A stretch of 64,000 bases of DNA. Origin: Escherichia coli O157:H7. GTDB taxonomy: Bacteria > Pseudomonadota > Gammaproteobacteria > Enterobacterales > Enterobacteriaceae. The position numbers and the translations under genes were made by a program. Under the pieces are notes generated by a model. It did no database searches. It was not told the DNA's origin and saw only the letters and a program-made list of their open reading frames with translations. The stretch lies in the NCBI RefSeq assembly GCF_013167455.1, contig NZ_CP038328.1, one strand, 5' to 3'. Below, piece by piece: positions 11,110 through 11,270 of the stretch (positions are counted from its first letter, which is position 1; every line of letters begins with the position of its first letter).

Positions 11110-11185
11110 GTGAGCGAGATCAAATTCTAAATCAGCAGGTTATTCAGTCGATAGTAACCCGCCCTTCGGGGATAGCAAGCATTTT

Positions 11186-11227
11186 TTGCAAAAAGGGGTA
11201 GATGCAATCGGTTACGCTCTGTATAAT
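11186..11227 (+). promoter_or_regulatory. guaB promoter region: -10 TATAAT at 11222-11227, AT-rich upstream tract, candidate pur-box-like element at 11202-11217
   Basis: TATAAT hexamer 44 bp upstream of the guaB ATG; aTGCAAtCGgTTaCgc is a weak (11/16) pur box match. Confidence 0.4.
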
Positions 11228-11270
11228 GCCGCGGCAATATTTATTAACCACTCTGGTCGAGATATTGCCC

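Follow-up and report, generated by a model that had tools for sequence, protein, structure and literature searches.

Analysis of the intergenic region between xseA and guaB indicated that it is the known guaBA promoter (PguaB), with a low-affinity PurR operator located at positions -32 to -17 relative to the guaB start site. We assign a probability of about 0.93 to this reading. Both the PurR operator and the guaB promoter are already known, and the flagged feature contains nothing new. The analysis covered a stretch of 64,000 nucleotides, here called the window, which is part of the E. coli chromosome and for which the RefSeq annotation gives the ends of xseA and guaB. Positions 11110 to 11270 correspond to the entire 161-bp gap between these divergent genes. 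The initial annotation, which was made from the sequence of the window, had described this segment as a divergent xseA-guaB control region; its limits coincide exactly with the gap, and a divergent xseA promoter is present in the literature. A 601-nt stretch around the gap is found once in 5,425 of 5,426 complete E. coli genomes, always as the xseA-guaB interval, and the guaB promoter from -39 to +7 is identical in 5,420 of 5,423 E. coli genomes. The coordinates of the individual features are listed in Table 1.

The divergent guaB and xseA promoters

The guaB start site was mapped previously to position 2,632,129 of NC_000913 (1497 reads), which gives a leader of 37 nt; the sequence listed upstream of it ends with ...TATAATGCCGCGG (Kim et al. 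2012, supplement, PMC3415461). This position corresponds to G 11234 in the window. Two cross-checks agreed with the assignment: with the start at 11234, the center of the CRP core is located at -117.5, as published, and the published figure, which ends at +40, ends on the G of the ATG. Sequence and published data together thus establish the start site. The initial annotation had placed a TATAAT hexamer at 11222-11227 and had tied its promoter to the agreement of this hexamer with mapped starts. The hexamer is located there, 7 nt upstream of the mapped start, and the comparison revealed that the start at 11234 agrees with it. The promoter itself was therefore upheld, but not the name "P1", as the literature describes a single promoter, PguaB.

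The TATAAT sequence did not vary among 68 unique Enterobacterales promoters. TAGATG, presumed to be the -35 hexamer, agrees with TTGACA at three of six positions. A G+C-rich discriminator of 6 nt was found in 118 of 118 anchored guaB loci, in all taxa examined. The guaB promoter thereby shows the features that define a sigma-70 promoter with an UP element of the growth-rate/stringent type, namely, a -10 hexamer about 7 nt from the start, a match to the UP consensus, and a G+C-rich discriminator.

The A/T-rich tract at 11181-11196 (ATTTTTTGCAAAAAGG) had been interpreted in the initial annotation as part of a strong, growth-rate-regulated guaB promoter. This tract belongs to the published UP element of PguaB, for which growth-rate-dependent control has also been published (Husnain & Thomas 2008, PMC2885671). 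In the same study, the function of the UP element was demonstrated by deletion, with end points at -59 and -37. Alignment of guaB promoters showed that the UP tract is kept in Enterobacterales. Within the UP element, a near-palindrome, TTTTTTGCAAAAA, was found with its center at 11188.5. The start site of the divergent xseA gene was mapped to position 2,632,219 (895 reads; 35-nt leader) (Kim et al. 2012, supplement, PMC3415461), and the xseA -10 and -35 hexamers given in Table 1 were read off the sequence. The xseA and guaB starts (11144 and 11234) are 90 bp apart, and their midpoint, 11189, coincides with the center of TTTTTTGCAAAAA. As the starts are symmetric about TTTTTTGCAAAAA, the tract covers about -38 to -52 in either promoter. 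Comparison with the UP consensus revealed matches at 8 of 14 specified positions in the direction of xseA versus 12 of 14 in the direction of guaB. By its symmetric placement, the published guaB UP element may serve the xseA promoter too.

Further regulatory sites at PguaB have been described for CRP (-117.5), FIS (-11, +8, and +29), and DnaA (overlying the core promoter) (Husnain & Thomas 2008, PMC2885671). The sequences matching the CRP and DnaA sites are included in Table 1. The CRP core overlaps the xseA start codon and maps to about +21 to +36 relative to the xseA start, i.e., it is located within the xseA leader. This 35-nt leader has no obvious Shine-Dalgarno sequence. The perfect DnaA box inside guaB agrees with the title of the work of Tesfa-Selase & Drabble (1996), cited in PMC2885671.

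PguaB resembles growth-rate-controlled promoters of the rrnB P1 type in its A/T-rich UP element, its poor -35 hexamer, and its G+C-rich discriminator. Unlike these promoters, PguaB has a perfect -10 hexamer, repressor sites for PurR, DnaA, and FIS, and an upstream CRP site, and its UP tract is palindromic and placed symmetrically between two divergent promoters. The effect of FIS on PguaB in vitro is repression, not activation (PMC2885671).

Table 1. Features of the xseA-guaB region and published PurR sites elsewhere in the window (positions relative to the guaB start in parentheses)
Feature	Position	Strand	Basis or remark
xseA CDS (exodeoxyribonuclease VII large subunit)	9739..11109	-	456-aa ORF; RefSeq E. 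coli annotation; start codon 11109-11107
CRP core TGTGAgcgagaTCAAA	11109..11124	.	1 mismatch to TGTGAN6TCACA; center at -117.5, the published position
xseA core promoter	11144..11178	-	start 11144; -10 TACTAT 11156-11151; -35 TTGCTA 11178-11173; 16-nt spacer
guaB UP element	11175..11196 (-59 to -38)	+	12 of 14 specified positions of the UP (Estrem) consensus match
guaB -35 TAGATG (presumptive)	11199..11204	+	placed from -10 and mapped start; 17-nt spacer
PurR operator (pur box) ATGCAATCGGTTACGC	11202..11217 (-32 to -17)	.	identity to ChIP-chip motif; PWM; positional conservation
DnaA-box-like 9-mer TTATACAGA	11218..11226	-	1 mismatch to TTATNCACA; overlaps -10
guaB -10 TATAAT	11222-11227 (-12 to -7)	+	sequence and mapped start
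G+C-rich discriminator GCCGCG	11228..11233 (-6 to -1)	+	sequence
guaB 5' untranslated leader, 37 nt	11234..11270	+	mapped start; fold
Shine-Dalgarno region GGUCGAG	11255-11261	+	in guaB leader
guaB CDS (IMP dehydrogenase)	11271..12737	+	ORF and RefSeq annotation; ATG at 11271
Perfect DnaA box TTATCCACA	11476..11484 (+243 to +251)	+	inside guaB
guaA	12806-14383		downstream of guaB; ORF and RefSeq annotation
purMN PurR site	24207-24222		published; between purM and upp
yfgO/yfgC PurR site	29504-29519		published; 45 nt inside longest yfgO ORF
purC PurR site	47601-47616		published; in bamC-purC gap

The PurR operator in the guaB core promoter

The 16-mer ATGCAATCGGTTACGC had been proposed in the initial annotation to be a degenerate pur box. 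Its reverse complement, GCGTAACCGATTGCAT, is letter for letter the guaB-guaA motif reported from PurR ChIP-chip analysis (Cho et al. 2011, PMC3159470), and the distance of 54 nt between the motif and the guaB ATG also agrees with the entry in that study. The corresponding PurR peak (2,632,091-2,632,533; log2 of 0.84) was detected with adenine only, and its enrichment is the smallest in the table of Cho et al. 2011 (PMC3159470). The sequence and the published data together establish the identity of the site and its occupancy by PurR in vivo with adenine. Downregulation of guaB by PurR was also reported by Husnain & Thomas (2008, PMC2885671), who termed the PurR site overlapping the core promoter "putative". 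Earlier work on purR-dependent repression of guaBA (Meng et al. 1990; Davies & Drabble 1996) is cited in the same paper (PMC2885671).

Comparison of ATGCAATCGGTTACGC with the PurR consensus, ACGCAAACGTTTGCGT, revealed 11 matching positions out of 16 (five mismatches), with the central CG present. A position weight matrix (PWM) for PurR was generated from Table 1 of Cho et al. 2011, which lists 28 motifs; the guaB entry was removed, leaving 27. Scoring with such a matrix had been put forward in the initial annotation as a check. With the guaB site excluded from the matrix, ATGCAATCGGTTACGC scored 14.8 bits (per-position P of 3.7e-6) and ranked 5th among 63,985 positions of the window. At this score, chance alone would yield about 0.001 matches within the 161 bp of the gap and about 0.5 to 1 in 64 kb. 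The four higher-ranking positions are the known purC, purMN, and yfgO/yfgC sites and one intragenic look-alike. Because the matrix was trained on motifs that include the three known sites, finding them again demonstrates no more than the collinearity of the window with K-12. Matches to the PurR matrix inside coding sequence were observed at 25556-25571, 27091-27106, and 39995-40010 (13.9 to 17.7 bits); judged by collinearity with an annotated genome, these positions lie within uraA, hda, and hyfD. Their absence from the published ChIP-chip list marks them as probable non-functional look-alikes.

Leave-one-out scoring of the 28 PurR motifs put the guaB site in 22nd place. ATGCAATCGGTTACGC is therefore weak among PurR sites yet far beyond chance at its location upstream of guaB. 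The description of the match as "weak" in the initial annotation thus holds for the affinity rank but not for the statistical support. Similarly, the box had been placed between the -35 and -10 hexamers; it does occupy the spacer, but it is not strictly between the two elements, as it shares 3 nt with the presumptive -35 hexamer. The raw sequence was in this way sufficient for a reader to recover the published promoter, the UP element, and the weak PurR operator, and the value of this result is that of a check.

The guaB box shares with other operators of the pur regulon (purMN, purC, purT, and purF) the 16-bp imperfect palindrome with a central CG and GCAA/TTGC arms, the overlap with the core promoter, and in vivo occupancy by PurR with adenine. 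It differs from typical pur operators in being among the weakest (14.8 bits versus a median of about 19), in having the lowest ChIP signal, and in having a T at position 2 and a TTAC right arm, which give it a GalR-like character.

The mechanism supported by these data is the textbook one. Sigma-70 RNA polymerase recognizes PguaB by the perfect TATAAT, the poor -35 hexamer, and the strong A/T-rich UP element and starts transcription at G 11234; the upstream A/T tract is common to PguaB and the divergent xseA promoter. When hypoxanthine or guanine is abundant, a PurR-corepressor dimer would occupy the palindrome at -32 to -17, a placement expected of a bound repressor that blocks initiation. 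From this position, we infer that bound PurR keeps polymerase off the -35/spacer region by steric exclusion, and transcription of guaBA would be lowered modestly. The published inputs from growth rate, CRP, DnaA (over the -10 hexamer), and FIS add to this control of PguaB.

Conservation of the pur box and alternative readings

To follow the pur box in other species, 120 guaB loci were collected from species-representative genomes of Enterobacterales, Vibrionales, Aeromonadales, and Alteromonadales. The search was anchored solely on the N-terminal coding sequence of guaB, so the promoter sequences were obtained without bias. The pur box was positionally conserved in about 85 of the 120 loci. 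In most Enterobacterales, the best PurR match in the upstream 250 nt was the orthologous 16-mer, located 4 nt before TATAAT; in Vibrionaceae, the best match was located 6 nt before TATAAT. The Vibrionaceae boxes are often nearer to the consensus, e.g., AGCCAAACGTTTGCGT with 19.9 bits, and have different flanks. Among the 68 unique Enterobacterales promoters, columns that are more informative in the PurR motif were better conserved in the box (Spearman 0.76, P 6e-4), and the variable columns of the box (2, 7, 10, and 13) correspond to degenerate positions of the PurR motif.

The pur box was absent from the guaB loci of Aeromonas, Tolumonas, and Alteromonadales among the 120. Within Enterobacterales, loss of the box was observed in five loci of Rahnella/Rouxiella, two of Budvicia, two of Rosenbergiella, and two of Mangrovibacter. 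In these box-less Enterobacterales, guaBA may no longer belong to the PurR regulon. Their promoters keep the -10 hexamer (TATACT in Rahnella/Rouxiella), the discriminator, and the leader helix described below. As the promoter elements are kept in lineages without the box, the spacer sequence is not constrained by polymerase, and the constraint on it where the box is present has the shape of PurR.

This result bears directly on the possibility that the likeness to a pur box is coincidental and that the spacer is conserved for contacts with polymerase, DnaA, or FIS. Such contacts are conceivable, since the DnaA-like box (11218-11226) and a FIS site centered at -11 adjoin the pur box and the entire core promoter is highly conserved. 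Nevertheless, coincidence is very hard to reconcile with the expectation of about 0.001 chance matches in the gap, with a PurR ChIP-chip peak that covers the site, and with substitutions that follow the PurR motif; lineages with a scrambled spacer retain a promoter that looks functional, and the Vibrionaceae box is nearer to the PurR consensus despite its differing flanks. A chance match was thus ruled out by the PWM statistics and the phylogenetic footprint. It is even less credible, to the point of being negligible, that the true guaB promoter or start is located elsewhere and that the box is therefore not placed between a -35 and a -10 hexamer. This reading derives from a generic consensus scan, which was silent on PguaB and returned as its sole candidate a minus-strand pair, TCGACT-16-TAGAAT (11151..11124). 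The scan demanded at least four of six matches in the -35 hexamer, a threshold that PguaB falls short of because it relies on its UP element, and the promoter was therefore missed owing to its weak -35. The mapped starts at 11234 for guaB (1497 reads) and at 11144 for xseA contradict a different location, and the minus-strand candidate was rejected as incompatible with the xseA start.

A somewhat more serious alternative, which we still regard as improbable, is that the 16-mer serves GalR/GalS, or both PurR and GalR, instead of being a purely PurR site. GalR/GalS operators are, like the guaB box, 16-bp palindromes of the LacI family, and exactly ATGCAATCGGTTACGC at guaB is found among the sequence-predicted GalR "gene regulatory sites" (Qian et al. 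2016, PMC5110547). With a GalR matrix generated from the 19 ChIP-derived GalR sites of Qian et al. 2016 (PMC5110547), ATGCAATCGGTTACGC scored 14.9 bits, which equals its performance on the PurR matrix, is within the range of real GalR sites (11.1 to 21.5 bits) and exceeds the GalR cross-score of all other PurR sites (maximum, 14.2 bits). In contrast, guaB is not among the 15 regions bound by GalR in ChIP-chip analysis (Qian et al. 2016, PMC5110547), while PurR occupancy and purR-dependent regulation have both been published (PMC3159470; PMC2885671). Outside Enterobacteriaceae, the orthologous sites scored 12 to 20 bits with the PurR matrix versus 1 to 10 bits with the GalR matrix; since they score well for PurR and poorly for GalR, the conserved constraint is PurR-like. 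GalR was rejected as the main binder on the basis of the negative ChIP-chip result at guaB and the PurR-specific orthologues. The hybrid PurR/GalR character of the box (ATG... TTAC) was observed to be specific to Enterobacteriaceae.

The reading of ATGCAATCGGTTACGC as a PurR operator illustrates that a "weak" operator can gain firm support from its position and phylogeny when a PWM is combined with a phylogenetic footprint.

A predicted helix in the guaB leader

Folding of the 37-nt guaB leader predicted an outer helix that pairs 11234-11242 with 11260-11268 and an inner hairpin that pairs 11247-11250 with 11254-11257. In this predicted structure, the 5' end of the mRNA, GCAAUAUUU, is paired with AGAUAUUGC, and the helix ends 2 nt before the AUG. 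The fold energy of the E. coli leader is -11 kcal/mol (z of -2.1). More generally, the first 9 to 13 nt of the mRNA (GCAAUAUUU...) are predicted to pair with the segment from the Shine-Dalgarno sequence to the AUG (...GAGAUAUUGC).

Analysis of 75 unique leaders revealed that in 72 of them the minimum-energy fold pairs nucleotides 1 to 7 with nucleotides at most 14 nt before the AUG. The leaders vary in length from 32 to 156 nt, and the helix encloses all of the intervening sequence (median z of -3.8). Conservation of the helix extends over Enterobacterales, Vibrionales, Aeromonadales, and most Alteromonadales. In many Enterobacterales, it comprises 13 bp and takes in a GGUGA Shine-Dalgarno sequence through G-U pairs, which argues for an RNA helix over a DNA palindrome. 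In seven Vibrio loci, an insertion of 80 to 150 nt was observed between the conserved arms; it carries a conserved hairpin (...CACUUUAUUAUGCGAAACGAUAAAGUG...) with no match to an Rfam family.

In an alignment of 42 sequences, 92.8% of the cells were paired, compared with 31 to 57% when the partner was slid, a comparison in which the structure was derived from the same sequences that were used to test the pairing. Four pairs were changed on both sides, e.g., from U-A to C-G in three genera of Alteromonadales, with U-G intermediates in Tolumonas and Paraglaciecola; these double changes are few and come from one clade, and the two arms hardly vary within Enterobacterales and Vibrionaceae. None of 500 shuffles matched the observed covariation score. 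RNAalifold, applied to a MAFFT alignment, returned only the five terminal pairs with almost no covariation term, a poor result that is due to the nearly invariant arms and the poorly aligning loop. Given this near-null outcome, the support for the helix rests on the pair counts and the folds of individual sequences. A search of Rfam with the window region and six related loci revealed no family at the guaB leader. Likewise, no guaB leader helix, hairpin, or start-site switch was found in a literature search, the coverage of which did not extend to the 1985 sequence papers.

The leader hairpins of pyrC and pyrD control translation by start-site switching. As in the pyrC type, the predicted guaB folds place a 5'-terminal helix over the ribosome-binding site: the helix begins with the first transcribed nucleotide and covers the segment from the Shine-Dalgarno sequence to the AUG, and its predicted stability depends strongly on the start nucleotide. 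The helix stabilities calculated in silico were -18.3 kcal/mol for a start at G-1, -15.0 for G+1, -11.2 for C+2, and -8.9 for A+3. In contrast to pyrC and pyrD, which switch between alternative starts, guaB has a single start site listed in the mapped data (Kim et al. 2012, PMC3415461).

Judging from these folds, the leader helix could set mRNA stability and translation. Our tentative view, held at somewhat less than even odds, is that it is a functional and so far uncharacterized post-transcriptional element. The further step, that synthesis of GuaB is sensitive to the start nucleotide (G+1 versus A+3) and hence to the GTP/ATP balance, is speculative and appears unlikely to us. To our knowledge, no clear mechanism has been established for the guanine-specific control of guaBA that is independent of PurR, and for this reason the leader helix is the only potentially new lead of this analysis. 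Sensitivity to the start nucleotide, if true, would offer a way in which the old "dual control by adenine and guanine nucleotides" could operate independently of PurR.
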